A stretch of DNA of 64,000 nucleotides from a virus (taxonomy: Duplodnaviria; Caudoviricetes), in IMG/VR virus record IMGVR_UViG_3300020036_004254; one strand, given 5' to 3'. Position 1 is the first letter of the stretch. Every line of letters begins with the position of its first letter. Shown here piece by piece: positions 1-20,700 of the stretch. The position numbers and the translations under genes were made by a program. The notes under the pieces were generated by a model. It did no database searches. It saw only the letters and a list, made by a program, of their open reading frames with translations, and was not told the DNA's origin.

Positions 1-59
1 ATCACAATGCAAGCCGTCGTCAAAAGTCTGTACGAAACCTTCCGAAAAGAGACAACCCC

Positions 60-266
60 GTGAAAGTTACCTCCGTCACCAAAATCCGCGAAATCGTCCT
101 CACCCTCTCCATTGAGGAAGCCCAGAATCTCATCGACTTTAGTGATATCGTTGGCGACTCCTTGCTAAATCCCCATAATGTCTACGCAACAAAAGCAGAC
201 AATGGACGATTCGCCCTGTACGAACTGCGTCGATTCCTCGGGTCCGCCATCCACAAAAATGCGTAA
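60..266 (+). CDS. hypothetical protein
   Basis: 68 aa ORF; GTGA overlap with an upstream partial ORF; overlaps next ORF. Confidence 0.6.
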   Translation: MKVTSVTKIREIVLTLSIEEAQNLIDFSDIVGDSLLNPHNVYATKADNGRFALYELRRFLGSAIHKNA

Positions 267-474
267 CCTCTCACTCTTCCTGTTCTCCTATTACGACCAC
301 TGGGCCTACGGCGGTTTCGAAATGAAAGAAATCGCCGTCGTCGCCAATACCGAATCGGAAGCCCTCGGAATGATTCTGGACAAATACCCAGAAACCACCC
401 CCACCAAATGGTGTCATAACAGTGTCGATATGACACGGCCCAACATCATCGAACTGTCCGAACGCTCCTCTTGA
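259..474 (+). CDS. hypothetical protein
   Basis: ATG at 259 (MRNLSLFLF...) overlapping the upstream stop. Confidence 0.6.
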   Translation: MRNLSLFLFSYYDHWAYGGFEMKEIAVVANTESEALGMILDKYPETTPTKWCHNSVDMTRPNIIELSERSS

Positions 475-499
475 CAAACACTGGGGTATAGGTTAGTAT
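471..499 (+). promoter_or_regulatory. sigma70-type promoter TTGACA-N17-TAGTAT
   Basis: consensus -35, 17 bp spacer, near-consensus -10; fires into non-coding DnaA-box region. Confidence 0.75.
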
Positions 500-592
500 T
501 CATCCGAGAGCCGTGTTCCACCCCGTCAGCCGTCATCCGTATCCCCACACACGAAGCCGTTCGGTTTGTACTGGAAGCCTACAACCGGAACG

Positions 593-671
593 TGTGGAGA
601 AATAATCCCACGTGGAAACAGATAGAGTTATCCACACCAGATGTGGATAAGTCGCCGTAAAATGTGGATAA
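593..671. promoter_or_regulatory. DnaA box cluster
   Basis: TTATCCACA at 628-636, TGTGGATAA at 642-650 and 663-671 (perfect), TGTGGAGAA at 593-601 (1 mismatch). Confidence 0.75.
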
Positions 672-913
672 CCTCGGGAGAAAGTCATTGGTAACCATTC
701 GGTTACTTAACATTATCTTGAAGTATTCTCAGTGAACCATTTGGTTCAGTGTCCTAATAATGAGACACCAACTAAATCTCAAGGGGTTACGCTCCGAGAA
801 AGATTTTTTCACCGGGATTGTTCAATCATTTCGGTGTGGTGGACGTAGATTGGAACGTTGGTGAAAACATGTGGTTAAACGTTGGGTCAACCCCTTGAGA
901 GGAGTGGAAAACG

Positions 914-1129
914 GTGAAATATTTTGCGATTCGGGCGTCCGAGACGGATTGGACGGTGCCTAATCAGTACGTGGCGAGCCGTGGTCGTCCGGTGCAGTGG
1001 ACGCGGGACGTAGACGATGCGGTGCAGTTTGGCACGGCGACAGCGGCCATGAATTTTGCGGGACTTCGTGGGATTTCTGCGGCGGTGTTGGTGGAGGTGT
1101 CTCACGAGGTGGTGGTTCGGGAAATCTAG
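914..1129 (+). CDS. hypothetical protein
   Basis: 71 aa ORF, GAGGAG RBS upstream of GTG. Confidence 0.7.
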   Translation: MKYFAIRASETDWTVPNQYVASRGRPVQWTRDVDDAVQFGTATAAMNFAGLRGISAAVLVEVSHEVVVREI

Positions 1130-1171
1130 GGGAAACCCTGACTTGCGTGGAAGCGAGCAAGCGAGTACTTT
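1128..1171 (+). promoter_or_regulatory. box-class promoter (GGGAAACCCTGAC + TTGCGT-N17-TACTTT), leaderless
   Basis: member of repeated promoter family; ATG 7 nt after -10. Confidence 0.75.
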
Positions 1172-1178
1172 TCGTCCC

Positions 1179-1559
1179 ATGAGACAGCCTATCTGCCCCG
1201 CCCGAGACTTTGGCACGTGTTCCTTCAGCAACAGCACGGGTCCGTCCTTGTGTGTGTTTTGTGGGACGGCCCATCCTTTCCCCCCGGAGAATTCTGTGGA
1301 AAACGAGTTGGTCAAGCCCAACATCAATCTGAACGGTTCTGACGGGATGGAGTTGGCTCGTCAGTACTACGAGGCGGCACAGGCGGTTGAGAACGCCGCA
1401 AATCTCATGGGGCGACTCGTCCACGGTCGGGACTATCAGGGGTCACCGGACGGTGCCTACGAGCGAGCCTACCAGCAGATGGTGGAGCGTCTCAAGCCCA
1501 TGATTTCTGCGTACAACGACCTGAAGGCGATTGCGGAACATTGTGTGGAGGAAGCCTGA
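1179..1559 (+). CDS. hypothetical protein (probably leaderless)
   Basis: MRQPICPARDFG...; start re-assigned to ATG 1179 after promoter. Confidence 0.65.
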   Translation: MRQPICPARDFGTCSFSNSTGPSLCVFCGTAHPFPPENSVENELVKPNINLNGSDGMELARQYYEAAQAVENAANLMGRLVHGRDYQGSPDGAYERAYQQMVERLKPMISAYNDLKAIAEHCVEEA

Positions 1560-1562
1560 TTC

Positions 1563-1605
1563 AGGGAAACCCTGACTAGCGCGGGGTTATCCCGTGAGAT
1601 ATTGT
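1563..1605 (+). promoter_or_regulatory. box-class promoter (AGGGAAACCCTGAC + TAGCGC-N17-TATTGT)
   Basis: repeat family, 17 bp spacer. Confidence 0.75.
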
Positions 1606-1636
1606 TAGTTCACACCTTTCAGACAGGAGTTGTGTT

Positions 1637-1813
1637 ATGGACGAGGTAATGTTCAATGCCAAGGAGCGAATGACGCAGGAGCTTCTGGTGGCCAACACGG
1701 GTCATTTGCTGGCCTTGGGGTGGTCGGAGAGTGCGGTGGTGCGCCATTGTGAGGCGGTGGCGACCGAGTACTTCGAGCGGTTGGAGAAGCGGGTGAGGGA
1801 GCGGGTCAAGTAG
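1637..1813 (+). CDS. small hypothetical protein (58 aa, MDEVMFNAKERM...)
   Basis: AGGAG RBS, own promoter; below ORF-track cutoff. Confidence 0.7.
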   Translation: MDEVMFNAKERMTQELLVANTGHLLALGWSESAVVRHCEAVATEYFERLEKRVRERVK

Positions 1814-1987
1814 TGTCTGTGCAGAGTTGAAGCCACTGAGTAATGCTAGAGCGGCGCGTTTCCATCTTTGAGTGGAAGGAAAGGGTTTGTCGCGTACTTT
1901 AGAACCCACAGACATTACCTGTTTTCTCTTGGGGGAAAGGAATACTGGCCATTTGAATCGGAGCAAAGTCCTTTCCCCCGGAGAATC

Positions 1988-2030
1988 GGGGAATCCCTGA
2001 CTAGCGCGAACGTTGGACTGGTTGTAGCTT
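1988..2030 (+). promoter_or_regulatory. box-class promoter (GGGAATCCCTGAC + TAGCGC-N17-TAGCTT)
   Basis: repeat family. Confidence 0.75.
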
Positions 2031-2069
2031 CAATCGTGTAGGGAAACACTAACCCAAACGGAGTGACCG

Positions 2070-2225
2070 ATGAGCAAGACGGCGAAGACCAAGGGCGAGA
2101 AGGCCAAGTGGATGCGTATCTCGACGGCGCGGGATTTCAAGACCTCGCACACGGCGGGGATGGTGTTCAAGGCGTCCGACCGGGACTACGTGGTGACCGC
2201 TGACGGTTCGTGGCGGCGTAAGTAA
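2070..2225 (+). CDS. small basic protein (51 aa, MSKTAKTKGEKAKW...)
   Basis: GGAG RBS, own promoter, GC3-rich codons. Confidence 0.7.
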   Translation: MSKTAKTKGEKAKWMRISTARDFKTSHTAGMVFKASDRDYVVTADGSWRRK

Positions 2226-2359
2226 GCGTTCTCTTGGGGTGACTGACGTGGATACACCCTGTGGCACATAGCCTGACGCGGTCACCCCTTGAGATTTGAC
2301 CAGACCTGAAAACCCCGATTTGTTTATGATGGGTGAGTAGCCGCTGGTCAAATCTTTTC

Positions 2360-2402
2360 AGGGAATCCCTGACTTGCCGGTTGGTGGGTCAGGGGTTACC
2401 TT
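2360..2402 (+). promoter_or_regulatory. box-class promoter (AGGGAATCCCTGAC + TTGCCG-N17-TACCTT)
   Basis: repeat family. Confidence 0.75.
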
Positions 2403-2432
2403 TCTGGTGTACACTCCACCGAGAGCATACCG

Positions 2433-2588
2433 ATGCCCAAGTTTATTCTTTGGTCCAACAACGACCCGAACAACGCCTTCGAGGTTGAGGCAGACAACCC
2501 CAACAATGCCGCCTTTGCCGCTCTGAGCGAACTTGGCTGGTCCATGAGTGACGGCGACGAGGACGAGGACGAGGACGAGGAGGATTAG
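2433..2588 (+). CDS. small acidic protein (51 aa, C-terminal DEDEDEDEED)
   Basis: own promoter; (GACGAG)n coding tract. Confidence 0.7.
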   Translation: MPKFILWSNNDPNNAFEVEADNPNNAAFAALSELGWSMSDGDEDEDEDEED

Positions 2589-2593
2589 AGAAT

Positions 2594-2637
2594 AGGGATT
2601 TCCCCGACTTGCTTTCGGGTGGGACGGGGAGTATCCT
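2594..2637 (+). promoter_or_regulatory. box-class promoter (AGGGATTTCCCCGAC + TTGCTT-N17-TATCCT) driving the tRNA
   Basis: repeat family; 10 nt upstream of tRNA. Confidence 0.75.
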
Positions 2638-2647
2638 TGTGTCAGAC

Positions 2648-2720
2648 GCCTCGGTAGCTCAGTTGGTAGAGCAAGGGACTTTTAATCCCAAGGTCGTGGG
2701 TTCGAGCCCCACCCGAGGCA
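2648..2720 (+). tRNA. tRNA-Lys (anticodon UUU), CCA not encoded
   Basis: acceptor GCCTCGG/CCGAGGC+A, D arm GCTC/GAGC, anticodon loop CTTTTAA, T arm GTGGG-TTCGAGC-CCCAC. Confidence 0.93.
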
Positions 2721-2741
2721 CTTCCTTTTGCGGAGAATACA

Positions 2742-2867
2742 ATGCTCAAGCTCATCTTCAACAGTCTGCTCTTGTTTCTGTTCGTGACCGTGGTGCTGGT
2801 GGTGGTGTTCTGGCTGTGCAAACATCTTCTGATTCTCTACGTGGTGTGGATGTGGGTGATGATGTAA
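2742..2867 (+). CDS. small hydrophobic membrane peptide (41 aa)
   Basis: GGAG RBS; MLKLIFNSLLLFLFVTVVLVVVFW... Confidence 0.6.
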   Translation: MLKLIFNSLLLFLFVTVVLVVVFWLCKHLLILYVVWMWVMM

Positions 2868-3034
2868 TGTTCATCGACGTTGACGACGAGCCTGTGTACA
2901 CGGTTCGGACCTCGGAGTCCAAGATTTTTGTGCAGGGGGATTCCAACCCCATGAGACGCCACGAGGCTGAGGCCACCCGAGACATGCTGAAGTGGATGGA
3001 CCCGGAATGTGTGGTGGAGATTGTTATCCTGTGA
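2867..3034 (+). CDS. hypothetical protein
   Basis: TAATG coupling to upstream ORF. Confidence 0.6.
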   Translation: MFIDVDDEPVYTVRTSESKIFVQGDSNPMRRHEAEATRDMLKWMDPECVVEIVIL

Positions 3035-3279
3035 GTGCCGCCACCCGAGCCAAGTCAGCCCGAGAACGGGCAAATATTGCCGCACGGTTTATCCGTCGCG
3101 GGTCCAAGGGCAGTCGAGCGTTTGCCGACTGTTTCGAAATGGGTGACGGAGACGAGGTGGCCAAGATTCTGGTACAGAAAGCACAGACGGACAAGCGTTT
3201 GGCGAACTTCTGTGTGTACCATTCTTTCGGGACACCGGAGCAGGTTCAGGCGTTGTGTGAGGGCTTGACAAACCCGTGA
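3031..3279 (+). CDS. hypothetical protein
   Basis: GTGA coupling to upstream ORF. Confidence 0.6.
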   Translation: MSAATRAKSARERANIAARFIRRGSKGSRAFADCFEMGDGDEVAKILVQKAQTDKRLANFCVYHSFGTPEQVQALCEGLTNP

Positions 3280-3293
3280 GAGGGTGTTATCAT
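3265..3293 (+). promoter_or_regulatory. sigma70-type promoter TTGACA-N17-TATCAT
   Basis: near-consensus. Confidence 0.8.
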
Positions 3294-3299
3294 TAGTTC

Positions 3300-3575
3300 A
3301 CACCGGGACAACGGGTATCTCACGACCCGCCCCTGTCAGGCAATAGCATAAACGGTAATGCGCCCCGTGAGAGGGGAGATTGGGGTTCGAATCCCCGGCT
3401 TGTCTTTGGTACTATCCCCAAGGGTTCGAAAAATATCGAGTTCCCGACTGGCCGAAGCGTTCTCTTGGGGTAGTCCCATTCTTTTCTCAGTACACGGGAA
3501 AGGCCCGGAAAAAATCCCGCGTCGGTACGGTTGCAACCGTGCTAATCATGTGCTATCCGTGGGTTGTCGCACATG
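3300..3575 (+). ncRNA. putative structured RNA including a tRNA-like element (3337-3406)
   Basis: D arm GCAT/ATGC, T arm GGGG-TTCGAAT-CCCC, aberrant anticodon arm CCCC-GTGAGA-GGGG, followed by several hairpins. Confidence 0.5.
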
Positions 3576-3833
3576 GGCGTGAAATCGGCTGACTACCACG
3601 TGTTCTTTTCTCCGGAGGTTCCAATGGGTGGTCGCATCGAAGGTGCAGGCATGAATCTCAAGGGGGTTCCCACGGTGACGGTGGTGTTCGGTCAGTGGAA
3701 TACCGTCCATCCTGTCCACGTGGTGGGTATTTTCAACACGGAAGAGAAAGCGGTGGCTCTGGTGAAAGAGGAAGAGGCTCGCACGGAGCATCGACGACTC
3801 CGGGTCTGGCACGAGACGTTCTTCGTGCAGTAA
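3564..3833 (+). CDS. hypothetical protein (start uncertain)
   Basis: ORF with coding-like C-terminal half (VVGIFNTEEKA). Confidence 0.5.
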   Translation: MSHMGVKSADYHVFFSPEVPMGGRIEGAGMNLKGVPTVTVVFGQWNTVHPVHVVGIFNTEEKAVALVKEEEARTEHRRLRVWHETFFVQ

Positions 3834-3900
3834 AGTTTGTCAAGGCCCCGCCAACGGAGTTGGCAGTAGAGCAGATGGATTGGGGTTGAAAGTCTGACCC

Positions 3901-3929
3901 TTGACAAACCCACTCGCCCCGAGTATCTT
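3901..3929 (+). promoter_or_regulatory. sigma70-type promoter TTGACA-N17-TATCTT
   Basis: near-consensus, upstream of ORF 3959. Confidence 0.8.
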
Positions 3930-3958
3930 CAGTCATCACTTCAACCACAGGAATCCTC

Positions 3959-4348
3959 ATGAAAAACGCCAAGACGGAAAAGGTCAAGAATACCCTCACC
4001 TACTATCTTGAGGACGGTACGGTTGCCGTGGTCCCGGCAAGCTGGCCCAAGGCCAAGTACATCATCAAGAATGCGTCTGGAATCTCGTTCTTCGAGGAGA
4101 ATCCGGGGTCGGATTCCCCGAATCTCCACGAAGTGGACCGCAAGGAGTTCAACGAGTTCATGGTGAACGACTTTCGTTATCGTGTGAACGGGGACAAGGT
4201 CGAGGGCAAGTATTTCCATGGTTGGGAAACGTGCGGTCTGTACGGCTCGGACGGGACCGTGTCGGAGGTCATCCGGACGATGACGGCACACAAGAGGTGG
4301 GACGAGTTGGCCAAACTGATTGCGTGTGTTCGGAATCCCACGAAGTAA
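3959..4348 (+). CDS. hypothetical protein
   Basis: 129 aa, AGGA RBS, own promoter. Confidence 0.8.
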   Translation: MKNAKTEKVKNTLTYYLEDGTVAVVPASWPKAKYIIKNASGISFFEENPGSDSPNLHEVDRKEFNEFMVNDFRYRVNGDKVEGKYFHGWETCGLYGSDGTVSEVIRTMTAHKRWDELAKLIACVRNPTK

Positions 4349-4419
4349 ACGGGTGGGTCAAGGGGTGGCCGGGAACGCTTCCCAGTAGTACAGGCAATGG
4401 CGAAAGTCTGTACCACCCC

Positions 4420-4448
4420 TTGACACACGCGGACTAACCACTTAACAT
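4420..4448 (+). promoter_or_regulatory. sigma70-type promoter TTGACA-N17-TAACAT
   Basis: near-consensus. Confidence 0.75.
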
Positions 4449-4477
4449 TCTCGTATCACCCCCGAAAGAGGAATCCC

Positions 4478-4882
4478 ATGAACTATTCGACTGTGACAAC
4501 CACCAAGACCCCGACTGGTGGTCATCTTTTCCACCTGACCGACACGCTCGGAAACGAGCATCGGGTGTTCTTCGACGCCGGAATCAACGTTCCCGCGTTC
4601 GTGGTCGTTCGCACCAACGGCATGTCCTTCCTGAACGCCCCTCCGGAAAAACCGTTCAAGAACGAAAACGTCTTCCGGTTGGAGACGAAGGTGTACAAGA
4701 CGTTCAAGTGGGGAGGGGTCGCCTACCGTGTTCGTGACGGCAAGGTGGAGTACCGTATCCGTGGCGACGAGTGGGCGACCACTGGTGCCGCAGAAGACGG
4801 TGATGTGTACAAACTCATCGCACATCTGGTCAACCACGGTGAGTACATGATTCTGCGCGACTTGCTCAACGCGATGGAGTAG
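4478..4882 (+). CDS. hypothetical protein
   Basis: 134 aa, GAGG RBS; possible weak similarity to ORF 3959 (YRVNGDKVE vs YRVRDGKVE). Confidence 0.8.
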   Translation: MNYSTVTTTKTPTGGHLFHLTDTLGNEHRVFFDAGINVPAFVVVRTNGMSFLNAPPEKPFKNENVFRLETKVYKTFKWGGVAYRVRDGKVEYRIRGDEWATTGAAEDGDVYKLIAHLVNHGEYMILRDLLNAME

Positions 4883-4924
4883 GGGTTTCCCCGACTTGCG
4901 GAAGACCTCTCACGAGGTTACGTT
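4881..4924 (+). promoter_or_regulatory. box-class promoter (GGGGTTTCCCCGAC + TTGCGG-N17-TACGTT)
   Basis: repeat family. Confidence 0.75.
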
Positions 4925-4955
4925 TCTCTTCACACCACTCACCCGGAGCAACACC

Positions 4956-5180
4956 ATGCTGACCTGCACCCATCAGGGACACTCCTCCCAGTCCACCCAA
5001 CTCAAGGTTCAGGAGACAGACCGCGACAAGACGATGTTGGCGTTCTATCCCGACAACGCCGGAATGCACACCATCTGGCTCAACGCCGAGAGCGTGTTGG
5101 TCTTGGCCCGGAAGCTGGAAGCGTGGGCAATCAAGCGCGGGGCCAACCTCCCAAAATCTTCTGTGGAAGGAAGCCTGTAA
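4956..5180 (+). CDS. hypothetical protein
   Basis: GGAG RBS before ATG 4956. Confidence 0.7.
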   Translation: MLTCTHQGHSSQSTQLKVQETDRDKTMLAFYPDNAGMHTIWLNAESVLVLARKLEAWAIKRGANLPKSSVEGSL

Positions 5181-5324
5181 AGGCTCACCGTTCAGGAGAA
5201 CTCTAATGCGTCGATAACCGTTGAATCTCAAGGGGTTGAGGAACGTTCGCCCCTTGAGATTCGCAGGACGTAAACGCAAACGTCGAATCAAACGTTGCAC
5301 CAAACGTTGCACCTCGGAGGATTG

Positions 5325-5471
5325 ATGTCTACGCTGTGGCGGTTGCTGATGGTTTCCCTGTTCTACTTCCTCGTGGTGTTCTTCCCGGTTGACCCGTGGC
5401 AGAGGTTGGTGTCGGCGTCCGCTGGGATGATTTTGCTCAACGAACTGTTCGAACCGCGCAAGAAGAGGTGA
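5325..5471 (+). CDS. small membrane protein (48 aa)
   Basis: GGAGG RBS; hydrophobic segments. Confidence 0.6.
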   Translation: MSTLWRLLMVSLFYFLVVFFPVDPWQRLVSASAGMILLNELFEPRKKR

Positions 5472-5666
5472 AAACGGTGGCGTGTTCGTTGGAGTAAACG
5501 GAAACGTGTTCAACGGAGTAAACGTCATCAATCTTTTGGGGCAAAGATATTGGATAAGATTTTTTGCAGAGCATTGGACAGTTGTCTTTTGCCCCAAGAG
5601 AATGCCCCTTGACAGACTCGTTTCAAGGGGTTATCTTTTGTGCATACCCTCTGGAGATTCCAAGCG

Positions 5667-5840
5667 ATGAAGGACACCAAAGAGTACTGGAAAGAAAAGG
5701 CCGTTTATCTTGCGGCAATGGTGGCCTTGGTTCCTGTGCAAGATAGAATCTTGCCCGACGTTGAGGCTGGCGAGCTTGATTTTGCCACTGATATCTTGGC
5801 GCAATATCCGCCCCTTGACAAACCCCGGAAGCAAGGTTAA
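5667..5840 (+). CDS. hypothetical protein
   Basis: promoter TTGACA-N17-TATCTT at 5609-5637, GGAG RBS. Confidence 0.65.
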   Translation: MKDTKEYWKEKAVYLAAMVALVPVQDRILPDVEAGELDFATDILAQYPPLDKPRKQG

Positions 5841-5869
5841 CGTTCGGGTAACCCCAAGAGGACGGCACA

Positions 5870-6073
5870 ATGCGCGGAAAAACCACGTTGTTCGTTGACC
5901 AGTACGGAAGCAAGGTCTACGCCAAGACTGTCAAGGAACTGGTCACCGTCGCCGGGGGCGGCAAGGTTTCCAAGATGTATCAGGACGGAATGGGCGGGTT
6001 GAGCTATCACGTGGGCTACGTGGTGGGAAAGCGTTGGTTCACGGCATTCGTTCCTTTCTCCGCAAAGGTCTAG
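5870..6073 (+). CDS. hypothetical protein
   Basis: promoter TTGACA-N17-TAACGT at 5815-5843, GAGG RBS. Confidence 0.75.
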   Translation: MRGKTTLFVDQYGSKVYAKTVKELVTVAGGGKVSKMYQDGMGGLSYHVGYVVGKRWFTAFVPFSAKV

Positions 6074-6081
6074 AGGACACT

Positions 6082-6261
6082 ATGGCCAAGAAAGTTGCCA
6101 CTGAAGGAATGCACCACTCCCGTGCGTGGCGTCTCGGCTGGGAAGATGCCGCAAACGGAATGCCCCGTGGCCACTCGGAGAACGGGTTCCGCACCGTGCG
6201 CGGTGATTCCTATTCAGAAATGATGTACGACGACGGGTACAACGTCGGGTCGTGTCGGTAA
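6082..6261 (+). CDS. small hypothetical protein (AWRLGWEDA / YDDGY motifs)
   Basis: GAGG RBS. Confidence 0.65.
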   Translation: MAKKVATEGMHHSRAWRLGWEDAANGMPRGHSENGFRTVRGDSYSEMMYDDGYNVGSCR

Positions 6262-6303
6262 GGGTTTCCCCGACTTGCGGAAATGATTAGTTCCCGCTAG
6301 TAT
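6261..6303 (+). promoter_or_regulatory. box-class promoter (AGGGTTTCCCCGAC + TTGCGG-N17-TAGTAT), leaderless
   Basis: repeat family; ATG 7 nt after -10. Confidence 0.75.
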
Positions 6304-6310
6304 TCATCCC

Positions 6311-7027
6311 ATGAAGACTCCCAGCGGCGTCATCCTCTACACGGGTCCGTCCCAATTGACGGGCAAGCCCATCGTTGTGATTGCCACTGGACTGAACAAG
6401 TCCAGCCGCAATGCCAAGACGGGCGGCATGGTCCAAACCTACATTCTTTGCGCCGATGTCAATCCCATTGAGGCTCTCAACGGGGCGGATACGGCGATTT
6501 TCGGGGGTTGCATTCACCGCAAGAATCCTGTCACGGGGGTTCGCACCTGTTACGTTCGGATTGACACGGGTCCGAACGGCGTGTACAAGGCTTGGAAGCG
6601 CGGCGTTTATCCTGTGCTGACGGATTGGGCCGTCTTCACGGGCAAGGCCATCCGGTTTGGCACCTACGGTGACCCTGCCGCCGTCCCGCTTCACGTGTGG
6701 CAAAATCTTGCCGCCTACGCTGGGACGACGACGGGCTATACGCACCAATGGCGAGCCAAGAAGTTTGCGGGGTTGGCATCGTTCTGCCAAGCCTCTGCCG
6801 AGACTGCCGATGATGTCATTCGCGCAAACGCCAAGGGGTTTGGCACCTTCCGGGTTCTACCCGTGATGGAATCTGTTCCCGCAAATGCCATGCACTGCCC
6901 CGCATCGGCGGAAATGGGTAAGGTTACTACGTGCATCGAATGCGGGGCGTGTGACGGATTCAGCAAGCGCAACGTGGCTATCTTTGCACACGGCGCAACC
7001 GGACACAAGTACACGGGCGCACGTTAA
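6311..7027 (+). CDS. conserved phage Cys-rich protein (gp88/DUF7227-like, possibly Fe-S binding)
   Basis: motifs NAKTG, CxHR...CYV, RFGTYGDPAAVP, GYTHQW, CPA...CxxCxxC, AHG. Confidence 0.7.
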   Translation: MKTPSGVILYTGPSQLTGKPIVVIATGLNKSSRNAKTGGMVQTYILCADVNPIEALNGADTAIFGGCIHRKNPVTGVRTCYVRIDTGPNGVYKAWKRGVYPVLTDWAVFTGKAIRFGTYGDPAAVPLHVWQNLAAYAGTTTGYTHQWRAKKFAGLASFCQASAETADDVIRANAKGFGTFRVLPVMESVPANAMHCPASAEMGKVTTCIECGACDGFSKRNVAIFAHGATGHKYTGAR

Positions 7028-7069
7028 GGGAATCTCTGACTTGCGCTAACCCTTTTCACGGGATACCTT
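7027..7069 (+). promoter_or_regulatory. box-class promoter (AGGGAATCTCTGAC + TTGCGC-N17-TACCTT), leaderless
   Basis: repeat family; ATG 6 nt after -10. Confidence 0.75.
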
Positions 7070-7075
7070 TCCCTC

Positions 7076-7258
7076 ATGAAAACTTTCTCCATCACGTTCA
7101 ACGGGCGACCCATTGGGTCGATTGGTATTTGCTCTGTCTTTACGGTGGAAGTCACCGCAAGAGACATTTGGGATGCCTGTTCCCGTCTGTACGAAACACA
7201 CGAACATATCCGGTTGGTGACACACAGTGAAGTACAGAATAAGGGAAACCCCGACTAG
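7076..7258 (+). CDS. hypothetical protein
   Basis: 60 aa ORF after promoter. Confidence 0.7.
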   Translation: MKTFSITFNGRPIGSIGICSVFTVEVTARDIWDACSRLYETHEHIRLVTHSEVQNKGNPD

Positions 7259-7284
7259 CGTTCCGCTTTTCAGGGGTTTACCTT
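7242..7284 (+). promoter_or_regulatory. box-class promoter (AGGGAAACCCCGAC + TAGCGT-N17-TACCTT)
   Basis: repeat family. Confidence 0.75.
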
Positions 7285-7313
7285 TCGTTCACACCCTCTA
7301 GGGAGAATCACCG

Positions 7314-7847
7314 ATGTCCAGCTTGCTCCAAAATCTTGCGGGGATGAAGGGCGCGAAGTTCGCCTCTTTCGTCTACACCGCCAAGCCGTCAGGCCCCCGG
7401 CTCACTGAGGAAAAGGCGCGGCACGTGCTTATCCTCGGTGCGTCCACCAAATCTTTGTACGAACGGGATTTGGAAGTGTTGGCGGAAATCGCGCCGACGC
7501 TCAAGGGGCTGGAAGCCGACGCCGCAGAAATCATCGCGGAATCCCGGCGCGTGTCGCTCGCCGTCGGCATCGGCCACAATCCGGCGTACACCGGGGAAGA
7601 TGCCTACAGCGCAACCAACATCCCCGGCGTCAAGGTCCACAACGTCACGGGAGAAATCCACGTAAACGGATTGGTCGTGCGGAAGGATGTCATCACGGAA
7701 GCGACCTACCGCAAGGTCAACAGCAAGCCTGAGACGCTGGCACGTAAGGCCGTGGAGAACATGCTCCCGTCGTCCAAGTTCCGCCAGTTCAAGCTGTCCG
7801 GTATCACCGTCGCCAAGCTCAACGGCGAGACAATCGAAATGGAATAA
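7314..7847 (+). CDS. hypothetical protein
   Basis: 177 aa, GGAG RBS, strong codon bias. Confidence 0.85.
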   Translation: MSSLLQNLAGMKGAKFASFVYTAKPSGPRLTEEKARHVLILGASTKSLYERDLEVLAEIAPTLKGLEADAAEIIAESRRVSLAVGIGHNPAYTGEDAYSATNIPGVKVHNVTGEIHVNGLVVRKDVITEATYRKVNSKPETLARKAVENMLPSSKFRQFKLSGITVAKLNGETIEME

Positions 7848-8187
7848 GTCTCAGGGGGTTGTGGACTCGCCCCTTGAGCGTCTTTTTTGTTCAAAACGTA
7901 AACCCAAACGTTGCGCCAAACGCAAAGCGAAACGTTGCCACTCGGTATTTTTGCGCTATGTGCAACTCCTCTGACACTCGCACGGCATCCCCGGAAGCGC
8001 AAGGGTTGTCGTTCCCCCTTGAGCAAACAGAATCCGCCGAACGGCGAGCAACCAAGCGTCGGCGTCTACGGCTCATGCTCTTGCACCTTGGCCACTGGAT
8101 TCTTTCCAGTGCAGTAACCAACATGAGCGAAGCTCAACTAGACGCGATGCTCTTGCTCGTCCACAGTGCAGACCCGAACAAGCTGTA

Positions 8188-8260
8188 GGCTGGCACGGAA
8201 CTTGCAGGCGCACGGGCTGGCACGGAACTTGCAGGCGCACGGGCTGGCACGGTTTTTGCT
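8188..8260 (+). repeat. 27 bp tandem repeat, each unit containing a sigma54 -24/-12 consensus
   Basis: GGCTGGCACGGAACTTGCAGGCGCACG x2 plus GGCTGGCACGGTTTTTGCT; TGGCAC at 8191, 8218, 8245. Confidence 0.85.
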
Positions 8261-8441
8261 TCCCGTGCGTTCATCCCGACGACGGAAAAAAGTTCGGGTT
8301 CCCACTTGCGGAAATGGAATCGCCCCCTTACCCTTCCTGAAGGGCCGAAATGCCCGGCAGGGTTTTTTGACAATCGGGGGAAAAATGTTCGCCCCGAATG
8401 GGCGCGAACCATGTTCCCCCACTTTTCAGGGAGCTACAAAG

Positions 8442-9506
8442 ATGGCGCACGAACTGGAACAGAATGAAGAGGGAACGTCGTTTTTCCAAGTGGTGCGGGA
8501 AGGTGTCGCGCTTGCGTGGCACAATCTCGGCAAGTATTTCACTGCCGACGAACGGCCCAACACAACGGCGGAAGCTCTGAAGCTCTGCCGTGGTGACTTC
8601 GAAGTCGAAGTCAGGCCCCAGACTTACACCGCCTACACTTCCGACGGTGACACATACCAACGGGAAAGCACGCTGTCGGCGGCTATCGTCCGGACGGACA
8701 ACAACGTCGAAGTGGGGAGCGCGACACCGGGATATACGGTGATGCAATTCAGTGAGGCGATGCGGAACCTTGACCCGTTCATCGGGGAAGGGTTGGCGAC
8801 AATCGAGACGGCTGGCGTCTTCCGCAACGGTGACAAGGCTTTCATGCTCATGCGGTGGAATATCGAACGCTTTGGCGACCTTTGCCGGGAAGCGTTCGGG
8901 GACAGCATGCGAGCCTACGGGCTGGCCACGGCATCCCACTCTGGCCGGGACGGTATCTGTTTCTACGATACCGATGTCACCGTGGTGTGCCAGAATACGG
9001 AACGGGCCGCCGTCAATGGGTCCACCTCCAAGTTCATGGCGAAGCACTCGCGCAAGGCTGGGACGCGAGTCGTGGACGGTGTGACCAAGCTTTGGGGCGG
9101 AGTGGTCGCACAGCGTGAGGAAATCGGACGGGCAATCCTTGCCCTCCGTTCCCTGACGTTGGACGAAGCGACCTTCCGGGCAATGGTGCTGGACGTTATC
9201 GCACCACTGCCGCAAGAGTCGAAGAGCTTCGACCCGAGCGCGAAGTTCGCCAACACGATGGTCCGACGGGCAGAGGAAAAGAGGCTTACGCTGTCAAGCC
9301 TCTGGCACAACGCACCGGGACACGTTGGTGACGGGTCGGCTTGGGAAGCGTACAAAGCGGTGACGCATGCCGCCGACCATAGCGGTGTCCTTTGGTCGCC
9401 CCGGTCGCTGGAATCACGGGCCGAGGGACTGCTAGAGGGTCCGATGGTCACCGCCAAGAATGCGGTCTATAACGGACTGCTGGAACTGGCCACGGCAGGG
9501 AAGTAA
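8442..9506 (+). CDS. DUF932/DUF945 family (phage/plasmid-like TIGR03299) protein
   Basis: MAHELE, AWHNLG, VRTD, ETAG, SHSG, VVCQNT, KHS, GSAWEAYKAVT motifs; RBS GGAG before ATG 8442. Confidence 0.85.
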   Translation: MAHELEQNEEGTSFFQVVREGVALAWHNLGKYFTADERPNTTAEALKLCRGDFEVEVRPQTYTAYTSDGDTYQRESTLSAAIVRTDNNVEVGSATPGYTVMQFSEAMRNLDPFIGEGLATIETAGVFRNGDKAFMLMRWNIERFGDLCREAFGDSMRAYGLATASHSGRDGICFYDTDVTVVCQNTERAAVNGSTSKFMAKHSRKAGTRVVDGVTKLWGGVVAQREEIGRAILALRSLTLDEATFRAMVLDVIAPLPQESKSFDPSAKFANTMVRRAEEKRLTLSSLWHNAPGHVGDGSAWEAYKAVTHAADHSGVLWSPRSLESRAEGLLEGPMVTAKNAVYNGLLELATAGK

Positions 9507-9511
9507 GGGAC

Positions 9512-9546
9512 AGCGGGGCAAGGCTTGGACAGCTTGCCCCGCTTTC
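9512..9546 (+). terminator. stem-loop terminator
   Basis: AGCGGGGCAAG/CTTGCCCCGCT inverted repeat right after stop. Confidence 0.6.
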
Positions 9547-10058
9547 CTGCCTCTGGAACATAACTAGTTAGTTATGCGTGACTATTCGTTTAAAGGCGAT
9601 TTAAGGGCCTATCGCCGTTTAGGGCTATAGGGGTAGCCTAAACCCAAACGTGCATACGCTAAGTATATGTGTTTCAACAGGTTACACGCTTTGTGATAGT
9701 GCCTCTGCATACGGATTATGCAGGCTCTAATGCCCGTATAACGCAAGATTTGGCCGAATGTGTGCCTTAATGTTTTATTCGGGAATCGTTCGGTCTATAG
9801 AGTGATAGCACTTTCAGGGAAACCCTTATTGACTTTGGGGCGCGAGTGGTGTACCCGCTCAGAGAAAAGGGCTATATGACTTTATAGGAATATTCGGAAT
9901 ACCCGACCGACATGGGGGCATGGCATATGAAACGAGGTTACGATTTTCAAAAAATATTTCCCAGAATTTTTTTCCCGGGAAACCCAAATCATAAGACGCG
10001 GTGGAATACCCTTGTGTTCAGGAAGTGAATACCCTTGTGTTTGCTGATTGGCAAACAC

Positions 10059-10499
10059 TCACCACTCAAAGGAAAACTGTTCTCCGTTGATGATATCACG
10101 CCAGTGTTCAGGAAGTTGACAGTTGTGTGGAGCGTGGGTGAAGAGGGGAGCGATTTGGAAGTCGTTGTATCCGGCACGACCGCACCCGATGCGAGTGACG
10201 GCGAAGGTGAGGTTTGGGTATTGGTTGGCGTAGTCGAGGAAGGTGGAGACGTAGTTGACGACTGTTTTGAACGGGAGCGTGTTGATGTTTTCGTCTTTGG
10301 TGGGGATGGCGTAGGCTCGTCCTTGGGGACCATGTCCGACTCCACGGACGGCTCCATAGAGGTCAAGGGCGTCTTTAGCGGCACCCGCACCGTGTCGTCC
10401 TGCGAGGTTGGAGCCAAAGACGAAGATAGCGTTGGGGTGTTTCATGAGGGATTCCACGCGGAGTGTTTCGGCGTGGTCGTTGACGGTGAAGCGTTTCAT
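10059..10499 (-). CDS. macro-domain-like phage protein (A1S_2505-type)
   Basis: IFVFGSNLAGRHGAGAA...AYAIPTK...VTRIGCGRAG motifs. Confidence 0.8.
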   Translation of the reverse strand: MKRFTVNDHAETLRVESLMKHPNAIFVFGSNLAGRHGAGAAKDALDLYGAVRGVGHGPQGRAYAIPTKDENINTLPFKTVVNYVSTFLDYANQYPNLTFAVTRIGCGRAGYNDFQIAPLFTHAPHNCQLPEHWRDIINGEQFSFEW

Positions 10500-10669
10500 G
10501 GTTGGATATTGTGTTTTTTCGCCCATTCAATGAGGATGGATTTGAAAGTTTTTCTGTCGATGTATTTTTCTGTATAATCTCCATTGGGTCTAAGCCACGG
10601 GAGGGTGTCTGTCCATTTTTCGTTATGGAGTTCATCAATGAGTATGTTGAGGAGTTCAGTGTCGGTCAT
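10496..10669 (-). CDS. small hypothetical protein (57 aa, MTDTELLNIL...)
   Basis: ATGA coupling at both ends. Confidence 0.65.
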   Translation of the reverse strand: MTDTELLNILIDELHNEKWTDTLPWLRPNGDYTEKYIDRKTFKSILIEWAKKHNIQP

Positions 10670-11001
10670 GGTTGGGCCTCGGGGGTTGACGCTGTCAAAA
10701 TCTGACTGTCAAGTTTTGTGACACACGAGGTCAGCACTTTATTGACGGCATCACAGAGGACGCAGTCGTAGCGTTTGTGGGTGCGGCATCTGCCATAGGT
10801 GGTGAATTCTCGTAGTGTGTTTTTGAGGGTTTGTTGTGCGTTTGTGATGGCGTGATTATAGACCAAGTCACGAAACGTTTCCAGTTCTTGGATGCACCCA
10901 GCACAGGCGAAGTACTCGCCGTCGGGTTCTCCTTTCTCGGGGTAGTCACATCCAAAGCGTTGGGCCAGTGCGAACATCATGTCTCGTTCGGGGGTGGTCA
11001 T
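10666..11001 (-). CDS. hypothetical protein with CxxC motifs
   Basis: 111 aa ORF in coupled operon. Confidence 0.65.
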   Translation of the reverse strand: MTTPERDMMFALAQRFGCDYPEKGEPDGEYFACAGCIQELETFRDLVYNHAITNAQQTLKNTLREFTTYGRCRTHKRYDCVLCDAVNKVLTSCVTKLDSQILTASTPEAQP

Positions 11002-11205
11002 AAATGAATTTCTCTGTTGAGGTGTCCGCGATTAGCCATTAGGATACCTCGGTCCACGCACAGCGGACAGACCGATGATGAATACCATGACGATGAAAAT
11101 GTATGAGAACATTACGGTTGGGCCTCATCGATATTGGAGGTGGTGTGTCCACAGGGGCAGACAAAGAGCCATTCGTAGTCTGGCGGGGTATTGGGGAAGG
11201 TCATT

Positions 11206-11691
11206 TCATGGTGATGAATGTGGGGTGTGTTCCAGAACTTCCACCACGGGTGTTTCGGTGTGGGGAGTGGAGGGTGGACAAAGGGCCATTTCAGTTGTAG
11301 ATTTCTCTGATGGGACAGGGTCAGGTTGTGTAGGGTTGTTTTCATTGCGCCAGTGTTCCCATGAGGGGTGGGTGGCTTTATGGTAAAGCCACGAGGGGTG
11401 TTCGGGTTTGGGGGTGAAGGGCGGGGTCACGATGGGATTTTGACAGCGTTGGCAGAGGGGGACGTAGAGGGTTTCTTCTGGTCCATATTCATTGGTGACG
11501 AGGGCATAGGAGAGGTGTGTTTCACAGAAGTAGAGTCCACAGCCGTATTCCCCGCCAAGTGGGTCACCGCCGCAGACGTATCCAAGTCCTCGGTCGATGG
11601 TGCGTTTACATTTGGGGTGGTCGCAGAAGGCGGGGACGCCGTATCCTACGTCACGTTTCCACTTGTGGTCGTATCCTATAGACCAGCCCAT
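11206..11691 (-). CDS. conserved phage Cys/His-rich protein
   Basis: MGWSIGYD...GYGVPAFCDHPKC...CGLYFC; RBS GGAGG. Confidence 0.7.
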   Translation of the reverse strand: MGWSIGYDHKWKRDVGYGVPAFCDHPKCKRTIDRGLGYVCGGDPLGGEYGCGLYFCETHLSYALVTNEYGPEETLYVPLCQRCQNPIVTPPFTPKPEHPSWLYHKATHPSWEHWRNENNPTQPDPVPSEKSTTEMALCPPSTPHTETPVVEVLEHTPHSSP

Positions 11692-11969
11692 GGAGCCTCC
11701 TGAGGGATTGCCCATTCATCTTGGTATCCAGCGGCTCGAATCAGATTTCGAATCAGGGCATGAATAGTTCTGGCTTCATCTTTTCCGTACATGTTGTACA
11801 GGTGGGCTTCGGTTAAAAACGGTGCCGTTTCGTCTCCGGGTTCGAACATGGGATATTGTTTGGAATGGCCGTTGACTTTGGAGTGTGCCTTAAGATTCAC
11901 ATCGGGCACGTGGGTCATTAGGCGTCTGACGGCGTCTTCGAACGCGGGGCGGTCAAATGATGGAGTCAT
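11676..11969 (-). CDS. hypothetical protein
   Basis: 97 aa, ATGA-coupled. Confidence 0.7.
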   Translation of the reverse strand: MTPSFDRPAFEDAVRRLMTHVPDVNLKAHSKVNGHSKQYPMFEPGDETAPFLTEAHLYNMYGKDEARTIHALIRNLIRAAGYQDEWAIPQEAPWAGL

Positions 11970-12442
11970 GGAATGGGGAAGGGTTTGAGGTCGTGGGGTT
12001 GGTCGTCAATGAGAGTGTGGGGTTTTGCTATCTTGGCGCGAAGAGCATCTGCAAGCGCGTACACACCAGATTCAATACCATCGGCGTGGTGTGGAGAACG
12101 GATGGCACATGCATCCGTAATGACCTTGCGAAGGAACTCCTCTGACAGACTTTGGCGAGCGGAGCATCGCTTGCAAGTGACCCGCCGCTTGTGGCCAATG
12201 AATGACTCGCCACAGTGAATGCAGTTGTTGACGTAGTTCCCGTTCTCGTGCGAGAAGTCCTCGGGCCAGTCACACTCCCGCGCTTCGCGCTCGGGGTCGG
12301 GTTGTTCAGGACCACCCCACCGTTGCCACGGGAGCGGACAGGACCGACCTGTTGCGTGTGGTTCATTGTCGCGGTTCTGTGGGCAGAGTGAGTGAACGCA
12401 GTCACCGTCCTGCCCTGCCGCGCAGAGGGTAAGCGTGGTCAT
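11966..12442 (-). CDS. hypothetical protein with zinc-ribbon (EDFSHENGNY...CxxC...CxxC)
   Basis: ATGA-coupled start at 12442. Confidence 0.7.
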   Translation of the reverse strand: MTTLTLCAAGQDGDCVHSLCPQNRDNEPHATGRSCPLPWQRWGGPEQPDPEREARECDWPEDFSHENGNYVNNCIHCGESFIGHKRRVTCKRCSARQSLSEEFLRKVITDACAIRSPHHADGIESGVYALADALRAKIAKPHTLIDDQPHDLKPFPIP

Positions 12443-12846
12443 GGGTTTTCTCTGGTAAGTTTCATTTTGACACCAACGTAGGCATCGGTGAGGATGTCGT
12501 ATTGGTCTGAGAGGGTGGCAACTTCTTTTTTGAGTCTGGCTATTTCCTCTACGGCGTTGACCACATTCTGAGCAGAGACAAACACACTCAGACCACAAGG
12601 CGGATTGTGGTGATAGCGTGTGGCGACCTCTTCGAGCGAGACTTCGGTGTACGAAGGAATCTTATGAATCGCATCAAATTCTTCTTGGTTTACCGCTCTG
12701 AAACGGACGACATATCTTCCCGAAAGAATATGTTTATTGGCCTCGTAATGGGACAAGGTATATTGAAAGGGGTGTGGTGTTTCGTAATTGTAGAAAATAC
12801 CCCACATTTCAAGGGGTTTCAGCGGGTATAGAAAATCGTTAGTCAT
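12439..12846 (-). CDS. hypothetical protein
   Basis: 135 aa, coupled. Confidence 0.7.
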   Translation of the reverse strand: MTNDFLYPLKPLEMWGIFYNYETPHPFQYTLSHYEANKHILSGRYVVRFRAVNQEEFDAIHKIPSYTEVSLEEVATRYHHNPPCGLSVFVSAQNVVNAVEEIARLKKEVATLSDQYDILTDAYVGVKMKLTRENP

Positions 12847-13219
12847 TGGTGTCTCCTGAGGGTACGTGAAAGAATCCCATTTGACCCCGGTAGGGGGTGA
12901 GTGGGAGTGCGGTGGGGTTTTTCAGAACAAAGCCGTACTTTCCGGTGAACCACGGGCTGTCCGACCGTTCAACACAGTCCGCGATGTCCACGGTTCCGAC
13001 CAACCCGCCCATGGGAAAGGCGTCTGGGTCGGGAAGTGGGATGTTGGGATGGGTGTGCATGACGGTGACGTACCCCATGTGGTCAAACGATTTTCCGGCG
13101 TGGACAAAGAACGTCCCTCGGTGGTTGGTGCGCCACGAGCGATTTTCAATATCTTTGTAGCCGTTGACGATGAGCCACGCCCACGGCTGTCGAATGGTCA
13201 GGGCATTCATTCCATACAC
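12839..13219 (-). CDS. ASCH domain protein
   Basis: ALTIRQPWAWLIVNGYKDIENRSW...HAGK...GGLVGTV...RGQMGFF. Confidence 0.9.
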   Translation of the reverse strand: MYGMNALTIRQPWAWLIVNGYKDIENRSWRTNHRGTFFVHAGKSFDHMGYVTVMHTHPNIPLPDPDAFPMGGLVGTVDIADCVERSDSPWFTGKYGFVLKNPTALPLTPYRGQMGFFHVPSGDTND

Positions 13220-13575
13220 TCGGCAATTTGGTCGGTGATAGTGGTGTAGAAATCGCGCACGGCTTCGTTGAATTCGTTTTTGGTGATGAATTCCATATTA
13301 TCGGATATATTACAACGAGCGTTCGTGTCTAGTTCAATGACGTTGTGTGGGGTGTGTTGAATGGTCCACCCCCGGAGATTGTTCATGGTGTCAATGTGGG
13401 TGATAATTCCGTACATCCACCAACGGTCTGACCCACCGTAACTATTCCGGAACCGAAAACATTTCCCAACGTGTCGCGCTCTCTCAGCCGCTTTTGACGC
13501 TTCTGTATATTCCTTCTCGCGCTTGAGAATATCGTGGGCTTTTTCAACCTGTTGTTTGGTTGGGCGGTTATTCAT
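13207..13575 (-). CDS. hypothetical protein
   Basis: ORF in coupled operon. Confidence 0.7.
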   Translation of the reverse strand: MNNRPTKQQVEKAHDILKREKEYTEASKAAERARHVGKCFRFRNSYGGSDRWWMYGIITHIDTMNNLRGWTIQHTPHNVIELDTNARCNISDNMEFITKNEFNEAVRDFYTTITDQIAECME

Positions 13576-13846
13576 GGTCAAATTCCTCGGCAATGACATC
13601 TTCAATGGCATTCAGAATGGTGGTATCGTTGGTGCCGTTCAGTAAATCTGAGGCGGTCAGGACTTTGACCATGGCCACGCGGTAGATGGAGCGTTCGTGG
13701 TTGCGGATATGGTCTTCAAAGTTATCCAACGTGTTGAACGCTCGTGTCGTGTTTTCTCCAGAGGCTCTGGGACGAGACAGGAGGTTCTGCATGGTGGTGC
13801 GATACGAATCCACCAAATCTTTCAAGTGAATAAGGTCACTGTTCAT
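13568..13846 (-). CDS. hypothetical protein
   Basis: 92 aa, coupled. Confidence 0.7.
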   Translation of the reverse strand: MNSDLIHLKDLVDSYRTTMQNLLSRPRASGENTTRAFNTLDNFEDHIRNHERSIYRVAMVKVLTASDLLNGTNDTTILNAIEDVIAEEFDHE

Positions 13847-14322
13847 AGAGTCCTCATGGGGATAACCAAAAAGTGTGAACGTTCGGATGCTCTGGGGATT
13901 AAGACGCCTCTGGTGCCGCTTCCTTCGTCTCCCCCGTAGACATCCCGGAATCGTCCGGTGCGAATCAGGGCGAGCAAATCGGTTGGACGAATGGACCAGA
14001 TTTCATTCAGGTGTTTCAAATAATACACAAACCAATCAGCGGTACAAACTTGGATGCCGGATTTCTTGCCACGGGACTGGACTTCGATAAAGAGATTGCC
14101 TGTGTCTTTGGTGGGGGTAATCAGCACATCGGTTTTGATTTCGAAGGAGACAGGACCATGGCCAAAGACACTTCCGTTAGGAAAGTTGATGATGCGGTCG
14201 TATCGATTGGTGTCGTTGGAGGCAATGGGTGTTCCATCGTATTCCTGTGCAAACAATGTCACGACTTCGTGTTCCCCGGCTTCTCCGTCTTCAAGGTCTT
14301 GAGAAAAGTTATAGTGGGCCAT
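13843..14322 (-). CDS. PD-(D/E)xK nuclease-like phage protein
   Basis: DLEDG..GE, YD, EIKTD, TGNLFIE, SGI...ADW motifs. Confidence 0.7.
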   Translation of the reverse strand: MAHYNFSQDLEDGEAGEHEVVTLFAQEYDGTPIASNDTNRYDRIINFPNGSVFGHGPVSFEIKTDVLITPTKDTGNLFIEVQSRGKKSGIQVCTADWFVYYLKHLNEIWSIRPTDLLALIRTGRFRDVYGGDEGSGTRGVLIPRASERSHFLVIPMRTL

Positions 14323-19844: not shown

Positions 19845-20383
19845 ATGGAATCAAGAAAAGAAATAACATCTGCGTCAGAAAAATTGTTTTTTGCTAGGTT
19901 AATGCCGTAGGCAACAAACTGAACGTTCCCCTGAATGTAACCTTTAGAAGAATCGATTCTATCCAAAGAAGCAGAAGTCAACCCCATTTTCTCCCCATTT
20001 TTTTGAAGTGTTATTGGGACGTTTGACAAGCTACACCTTTCAGTCCATATAGATTGAAGATATTCTTCCGTAAGTTCAGAAAACGTATTACACGAATCGA
20101 AAGGAAGCCCGTCTTTAAACTTCCGGTTTCTAGCTTTTCTTAAGATGTATGTGAACTTTCCTTTTTTCTTTCCGGGTCTTCCGGTGTTAAATTTTTGTAG
20201 TCTTTTGATATTTCTAAGTACCTCTTCGCTTGTTCTGTTTTTCAATCGAAACGTCGAAGCACAAGACAAGGAACAAAAGAACGTTGTGCGTCCTTTTTTG
20301 GTCTGACGGTTATATTCCCCGTTTATATACCAAAAAGATTTTGAACAAACGCCGCAGTTGAGTTGTATGTGAGTTTTTGACAT
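19811..20383 (-). CDS. His-Me finger/HNH-type endonuclease
   Basis: CxxC...FCSLSC N-terminus; SLDRIDSSKGYIQGNVQFV...NLAKN. Confidence 0.8.
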   Translation of the reverse strand: MSKTHIQLNCGVCSKSFWYINGEYNRQTKKGRTTFFCSLSCASTFRLKNRTSEEVLRNIKRLQKFNTGRPGKKKGKFTYILRKARNRKFKDGLPFDSCNTFSELTEEYLQSIWTERCSLSNVPITLQKNGEKMGLTSASLDRIDSSKGYIQGNVQFVAYGINLAKNNFSDADVISFLDSIHTSRFKSNSA

Positions 20384-20399
20384 GTTGGATGATAGTAAA

Positions 20400-20665: not shown

Positions 20666-20666
20666 C

Positions 20667-20700
20667 CTTCTCGGCATATCTTCGGGTGTGCCGAGAAGTT
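20667..20700 (+). terminator. strong hairpin after tmRNA
   Basis: CTTCTCGGCATATC-TTCG-GGTGTGCCGAGAAG. Confidence 0.65.

Follow-up and report, generated by a model that had tools for sequence, protein, structure and literature searches.

A tandem array of three sigma-54-type promoter boxes upstream of a phage DUF932 gene

Three perfect sigma-54 (-24/-12) promoter boxes were found in tandem, on one strand and at a 27-bp period, directly upstream of the early promoter of a DUF932 gene in a 64,000-nucleotide stretch of viral DNA, the whole of which is referred to here as the window. Judged from the sequence, the boxes are real and almost certainly not of chance origin, and most likely they dock the sigma-54 RNA polymerase of the host. 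A survey of viral and bacterial collections indicates that tandem boxes form a genuine class found mostly in viruses, of which this locus is one small example.

The sigma-54 (RpoN) -24/-12 consensus is YTGGCACGrNNNTTGCW, with glnAp2, pspA and nifH as examples; transcription from such promoters requires rpoN and begins ~12 bases 3' of the GC. A pattern search of the 64-kb window for TGGCACG-N4-TTGCW returned exact matches at 8191-8206, 8218-8233 and 8245-8260 only, all on the + strand, which bears out the three consensus sites at 27 bp spacing reported in an earlier reading of this DNA (the first-pass annotation). The three boxes match the consensus at each of its twelve specified positions, and the flanking bases agree as well, with a Y preceding the T and an R following the G in every box. 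The GG at -24 and the GC at -12 are separated in all of them by ten bases, which is the spacing of sigma-54 promoters. When one mismatch was allowed, still just these three boxes were recovered in the 64 kb (three found vs. 0.53 expected); the pattern TGGCAC-N5-TTGC is expected 0.14 times in the window, and with two mismatches the window was at chance level, the three boxes excepted. The 27-bp period amounts to 2.57 turns at 10.5 bp per turn, in agreement with the earlier figure of about 2.5 helical turns, so that neighboring sites face opposite sides of the DNA, and it is shorter than the published footprints of the holoenzyme. Starts were predicted as motif center +19, following the rule of Bonocora et al. 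(PMC4591121).

The array begins with two identical 27-bp units (8188-8241, + strand), each with a perfect box and with predicted starts at 8217 and 8244, both of which land on the edge of the next box. Tandem Repeats Finder described 8188-8252 as 2.4 copies of a 27-bp unit with 100% identity, and the identity of units 1 and 2 extends over the 27 bp and the next 11. The third box, TGGCACGGTTTTTGCT, occupies 8242-8260 (box proper 8245-8260, + strand, predicted start 8271). It has 11 bases, GGCTGGCACGG, in common with the unit and then diverges: its N4 spacer is GTTT, a T-tract between the two elements, vs. GAAC in boxes 1 and 2, and its flank differs too, while the TTGC stays in register. The claim that the third unit diverges in the spacer but keeps both elements is thus upheld, and the retention of TTGC provides independent support of about 1/256. 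The array comprises more than one perfect box on the same strand at a period within 24-28 bp, with boxes that differ in spacer and flank. The hexamer GCACGG recurs across it as direct copies at 8193, 8210, 8220, 8237 and 8247 (alternating 17- and 10-bp spacing) and as an inverted copy at 8262. A repeat search further found a perfect 8-bp inverted repeat, CGCACGGG / CCCGTGCG, around box 3 (8236-8269, no strand assigned), the RNA of which folds with -21.9 kcal/mol (z -3.1).

The three boxes are not independent. Since units 1 and 2 are identical, the extra copy is the product of recent slippage, and by this criterion sites 1 and 2 are a single recent duplication; their identity, taken with the divergence of box 3, suggests that the ancestor probably had two diverged boxes at a 27-bp distance. 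In the simplest history, slippage between the two 11-base repeats would then have added one more unit on the upstream side, bringing the number of boxes to three. Selection on the motif, which the first-pass annotation had proposed from the third unit, is plausible; it rests on the diverged third site and on the numerous viral contigs in which diverged boxes recur at this spacing (see below).

The window encodes baseplate wedge, hub/lysozyme, tail-tube-cap and gp32-like proteins, and the baseplate wedge is ~34-38% identical to those of Pelagibacter phage HTVC008M, Methylophilales phage Melnitz and cyanomyoviruses. From the baseplate and gp32-like genes we infer that the window is part of the genome of an uncultured, distant T4-like myovirus. 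No DNA match to cultured phages was found, and a host assignment from the protein matches to cultured phages (~35% identity) was abandoned, these being too distant. As for marks of an actinophage, the window has no WhiB motif, and no WhiB gene (PF02467) is present in the 126-kb contig of the relative described below. The first 14 kb (1-14000; 52-57% G+C) form an early region rich in small genes, most of which match no family, while 14001-64000 (43-51% G+C) hold the structural and replication part. ARAGORN also predicted a tRNA with undetermined anticodon (3335-3405) and a permuted tmRNA-like gene (20361-20716).

The boxes lie within what is probably a non-coding control region of ~550 bp (7890-8441). 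The gene upstream of it (7314-7847, + strand, from the ORF list) encodes 177 aa without a Pfam or PHROG match, has a cassette of the kind described below at 7243, and shows a GC3 of 0.79, typical here. Directly 3' of it stands a terminator-like hairpin followed by a U-run (7850-7889, + strand); the fold of 7845-7892 reaches -16.5 kcal/mol (z -2.4), followed by CGUCUUUUUUG. The terminator scan did not flag this hairpin, the loop of which is too long. Its presence suggests that a new transcription unit starts beyond it. A doubtful 109-aa ORF with a TTG start (7859-8188, + strand) overlaps the hairpin; its coding signal is weak (GC3 0.61 vs. 0.69-0.79 in its neighbors), it has neither a family match nor a cassette of its own, and it is probably not a gene. 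Its stop codon (8186-8188) touches the repeat array.

Further upstream elements were sought by repeat search. At 7887-7966 (no strand assigned), ~250-330 bp upstream of the boxes, AAACG direct repeats with nested palindromes form a candidate protein-binding cluster. AAACG / CAAACGTTGC repeat clusters with a 12-bp period and nested palindromes are present both there and at 5277-5313; CAAACGTTGC showed no window-wide enrichment. The palindrome CACTGGA-N5-TCCAGTG (8093-8111, no strand assigned) has its center 115 bp before the start predicted for box 1. Both this palindrome and those at 7907-7966 are candidate activator sites only, and no convincing upstream activator site was found near the array. 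On the downstream side, the end of the last box is 37 bp away from the sigma-70-type promoter cassette and 182 bp from the DUF932 start codon; all three boxes are intergenic and point toward this gene, on the same strand. The whole region 8170-8445 folds with z -2.9, and no Rfam family was matched in 7000-10000.

A sigma-70-like promoter for the DUF932 gene had been proposed at 8306-8334, and this assignment held: it is a variant of an early promoter cassette (8296-8334, + strand) made up of GGGTTCCC, a -35 TTGCGG (8306-8311), a 17-bp spacer and a -10 TACCCT (8329-8334). Ten other clear copies of the cassette, all on the + strand, are found between 1130 and 9817, within a stretch of 1130-9833, with the form GGGWWWCCCYGAC, T(T/A)GCNN, 17 bp, TAnnnT, and the majority begin at the stop codon of the preceding gene. 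The copy at 2596 drives a tRNA-Lys gene. By comparison with this family, the ~108 bases that separate the stop codon at 8186-8188 from the DUF932 cassette, boxes included, are extra relative to the usual gene spacer of the phage. The cassettes resemble the promoter-early stem-loop (PeSL) cassettes of T4-type phages (PMC2839356, PMC4122927) in that both are short conserved promoter modules recurring between small, variable genes in a hyperplastic early region, a likeness drawn from the published descriptions. They are unlike PeSL in that no stable stem-loop (terminator) is joined to the promoter: the palindrome is only GGG-WWW-CCC, which makes no such structure, and the sole true terminator-like hairpin seen is that at 7850-7889. 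This comparison concerns the sigma-70 cassette and not the sigma-54 boxes.

The gene itself (8442-9506, + strand) encodes a 354-aa DUF932 / TIGR03299-type phage/plasmid-like protein (Pfam PF06067, E 7e-24; phrog_1221, E 3e-38), for which our literature search returned no description of function. An in-frame extension back to 8166, through the repeats, was rejected, since the homologues all start with the same MAHELE. The leader is ~100 nt long, vs. 25-35 nt for the other cassettes, and contains a long hairpin (8361-8435, + strand) built on an inverted repeat; the fold of 8340-8440 reaches -44.4 kcal/mol (z -3.6). This hairpin may be a control element for translation or stability.

Related loci were collected with the DUF932 protein, a search of viral and metagenome contigs which gave a 99% identical contig ending inside the gene, one 64% identical relative, and distant ones; other contigs, one of 26,966 bp, encode an identical protein. 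An exact search with the repeat unit found nothing beyond the window, and a search with the conserved promoter string returned the same 64% relative only. This relative, a 126-kb contig (L002), is the only informative one. Upstream of its DUF932 gene it keeps the promoter string TTGCGGAAATG and the leader string TTTGACAATC, and where the boxes sit here it has an unrelated repeat of ~28 bp (ACAACCCCGTGAGAGAAT core), present twice (2681-2708 and 2801-2828) and 120 bp apart. No exact box was found in its 126 kb. Four one-mismatch boxes there were taken as chance, their total being barely above the control and one pair (67299/67517) lying inside a coding ORF. The first-pass annotation had suggested that related phages be searched for the array; of the eight usable DUF932 loci recovered by profile search (25-64% identity; L002 and seven more distant ones), none had a box upstream. 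As far as these loci tell, the array is lineage-specific and the spacer preceding the DUF932 promoter is a hot spot of repeat turnover. With no counterpart in related DUF932 loci, function at this locus cannot be argued from conservation.

The layout itself is widespread among viruses. Two perfect boxes at a 23-35 bp period were found in at least 118 viral stretches, and the same pattern reversed, used as a control, in none. Bacterial and archaeal genomes totaling 596 Gb gave 35 such stretches, which form 34 families; in 16 of these families the N4 spacer is identical between the two boxes, and one stretch or more belongs to a contig that is also classed as viral. Judged from these raw counts, the enrichment of viral over bacterial DNA must be large. 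Clustering gave at least 83 viral families, 78 of 83 being something other than simple unit repeats. Among the matches listed, the period is 24-28 bp in 70 of 83 viral families, with a peak at 26; a sample over periods of 16-46 bp likewise showed a sharp peak at 26-27 and almost nothing at 19-23 or 30-34. Among the matches listed, too, the positions that the search pattern left unfixed were scored at 350 distinct viral sites: Y precedes TGG in 88%, R follows CACG in 72% and W follows TTGC in 78%. These positions match the sigma-54 consensus and thus give independent support for sigma-54 as the reader of the class. Arrays are intergenic in 43 of 49 families among the matches listed, and the next ORF is co-oriented with the array in 23 of 32 families (72%, p = 0.02, on crude ORF calls).

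Two further features were considered for the class and set aside. A shared upstream enhancer was dropped, as upstream palindromes showed no consistent position across 67 array families. Brackets of inverted repeats (arms of at least 8 bp) were present in 5 of 79 array families vs. ~1.3 expected, a small excess confined to a minority, and were not retained as a general feature. A separate arrangement was seen in bases 1-240 of one contig (L229) and in ~20 similar contigs of ~11 kb (sample 3300045988, L224-L289), in which box-bearing units of ~70 bp are repeated at both ends. The end boxes of these small linear contigs point inwards, as if part of terminal inverted repeats, and bases 1-33 of L229 resemble a sequencing adapter. 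The literature search, which covered few subscription journals, yielded no paper describing tandem sigma-54 boxes in phages, and none on sigma-54 decoys.

A sigma-54 promoter needs RpoN in the cell and an AAA+ activator, which usually binds ~70-150 bp upstream. The first-pass annotation had proposed a search for the gene of an enhancer-binding protein; six-frame translation of the 64-kb window, which is only part of the phage genome, contained no GAFTGA, no activator-type Walker A and no RpoN-box motif, so that within this part the array is carried without a sigma-54 activator. The activator domain PF00158 was likewise absent from the window and from the 126-kb contig of the relative, which also lacks GAFTGA and RpoN, and neither an activator (PF00158, GAFTGA) nor RpoN was found in any of 50 carrier viral records among the matches listed, 12 of which are at least 90% complete. 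It is reasonable to suppose, as was earlier implied, that the host encodes RpoN. Among bacterial carriers of tandem boxes, rpoN is present in three and absent from two actinobacterial genomes; the motif alone is accordingly no proof of an RpoN host. Of these two cases, one looks like a plain 25-bp repeat of a single unit and the other is a metagenome bin. They are a Virgisporangium isolate and an actinomycete bin (L128 3144-3233; L136 6483-6526, L158 1426-1469); on a 61-kb contig of the latter, possibly a mis-binned phage, there are two diverged arrays.

The reading that we tentatively favor, and which we judge a little short of probable, is that host sigma-54 polymerase docks at the boxes and that a host activator fires them as an auxiliary promoter for the DUF932 unit. 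Among known bacterial sigma factors, sigma-54 alone keeps RNA polymerase parked on DNA until it is fired by an ATPase. From the observed motif, its register, the anatomy of the locus and its recurrence in viral contigs, we propose binding, activation, start sites and a purpose for the multiple copies as follows. The host sigma-54 holoenzyme would park on the boxes as closed complexes, and a host enhancer-binding ATPase, invoked because none was found encoded by the phage, would fire them. Transcription would start at 8217, 8244 and 8271, with the proximal, T-tract-bearing box 3 as the main one, and the DUF932 unit would gain a second promoter dependent on the state of the host. The tandem copies would raise the capture of scarce holoenzyme, the spacing of ~2.5 turns placing neighboring complexes on opposite faces of the DNA.

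This auxiliary promoter is favored by the orientation of the boxes, their place ahead of a second promoter, the terminator-like hairpin upstream and the precedent of phage YuA (see below); boxes and cassette together form a tandem sigma-54 plus sigma-70 layout, co-oriented with DUF932. Against it, DUF932 already has an early promoter, no activator was found in the window, the relative or the carrier records among the matches listed, no convincing activator site was found upstream of the boxes, the related loci lack the array, and the starts of boxes 1 and 2 would land on the next box, which allows a single open complex at a time. Moreover, bacteria should use tandem boxes if these made better promoters, yet only the 35 stretches mentioned above were found in 596 Gb. 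A decoy, a roadblock and a host-sensing promoter had all been offered by the first-pass annotation. Of these, the promoter gained mild support from the orientation here and in 23 of 32 families and from YuA; the trap stays alive through the lack of a phage activator and the rarity in bacteria; and the roadblock was weakened, as a hairpin already follows the upstream gene.

The main rival explanation is a non-productive trap: the boxes would bind the sigma-54 of the host, alone or as holoenzyme, in closed complexes that never fire, or else would form a protein barrier beside the early promoter. Replicating phage genomes could in this way soak up a scarce factor and shut down the sigma-54 programs of the host. 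We regard this as less likely than the auxiliary promoter but as a serious rival, since it accounts for the lack of an activator in the window, in the relative and in the 50 carrier records among the matches listed, for tandem boxes being far more common in viral contigs than in the bacterial genomes, and for the sharp 26-27 bp period, which at ~2.5 turns suggests that neighboring sites are occupied together. In E. coli, moreover, most sigma-54 sites carry inactive holoenzyme (PMC4591121), and repression or interference has been proposed as a regulatory role for non-promoter sites (PMC3844500). A sink, on the other hand, has no need of fixed orientation, and yet 72% of families point at the downstream gene; the 64-kb window offers just three sites, a block to read-through would be redundant with the hairpin at 7850-7889, and the literature search found neither an experiment nor a paper in support. 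For the class as a whole, we consider it similarly doubtful that the phased boxes of unrelated phages are a dedicated device which loads or sequesters several host sigma-54 polymerases at once, a takeover or anti-host element and not an ordinary promoter.

The remaining explanations appear less likely still. The reader might be not sigma-54 but a phage or host DNA-binding protein acting on the GCACGG repeats, the sigma-54 match being a look-alike; the five direct copies and one inverted copy of the hexamer, the operator-like bracketing of box 3 by the 8-bp inverted repeat and the tandem boxes of the two rpoN-less actinobacteria would fit. This seems improbable when the twelve positions are perfect in all three boxes, including a TTGC for which the GCACGG idea has no need, when the unfixed positions of 350 viral sites follow the sigma-54 consensus, and when one actinobacterial case looks like a simple 25-bp repeat and the other is a metagenome bin. 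A box, functional or relic, might also have been copied by slippage into a neutral, unstable repeat, so that the array as such has no present function. The identity of units 1 and 2 over 27 bp plus 11 and the evident plasticity of the intergenic spot, where the nearest relative lacks the array and carries an unrelated repeat, agree with such a history, but box 3 is no simple copy, has both elements in register, and is matched by diverged pairs at a 24-28 bp period in at least 78 viral families; we hold this, too, to be quite improbable. Least credible of all, and in our judgment very improbable, is an RNA-level element, that is, 5' hairpins in a transcript from upstream that influence termination or the stability of the RNA. 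Two folds speak for it, that over box 3 (-21.9 kcal/mol, z -3.1) and that of 8170-8445 (z -2.9); but there is no U-run after the box 3 hairpin and no Rfam match in 7000-10000, the upstream terminator-like hairpin should halt most incoming transcription, and the perfect -24/-12 motif would be left unexplained.

Sigma-54 controls nitrogen use, motility, envelope stress and RNA repair in bacteria. A phased layout in at least 83 viral families, rare in bacteria and with no phage activators found, points to a so far undescribed way in which phages couple to, or disable, host regulation. Taken alone the present locus is modest, with three boxes of which two are identical and which are not conserved in relatives; it is nevertheless a compact and easily synthesized case, in which one, two or three boxes can be placed beside a defined early promoter.

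With bacterial sigma-54 promoters the boxes share GG and GC elements one helical turn apart, the full extended consensus, an intergenic position and an orientation toward a gene. They are unlike them in number and layout, with three boxes at a 27-bp period and the starts of the first two on the next box; in the window, which yielded neither an activator gene nor a clear upstream activator site; and in setting, directly upstream of a sigma-70-type promoter in a T4-like lytic phage. To our knowledge, the use of sigma-54 by phages is documented for very few of them, Pseudomonas phage YuA being the usual example. Its dependence on the sigma-54 of the host is cited in PMC5053324 from Ceyssens et al. 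2008, and for one sigma-54-like promoter of this phage a transcription start has been mapped (bioRxiv 10.1101/2023.10.13.562163). As far as these sources describe it, YuA resembles the present case as a phage without a sigma-54 of its own that has a host sigma-54-type promoter beside sigma-70-type ones, and differs from it as a siphovirus with a single such promoter region and no phased tandem array. The dependence of YuA is experimental, while the case made here is one of sequence.

The inactive, non-promoter sigma-54 sites of E. coli and Salmonella offer a parallel to a trap or barrier, both of which need a holoenzyme that can sit on a perfect box without transcribing (PMC4591121, PMC3844500). 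Those sites are single, mostly intragenic and usually of poorer consensus, whereas the sites described here are perfect, clustered and intergenic.
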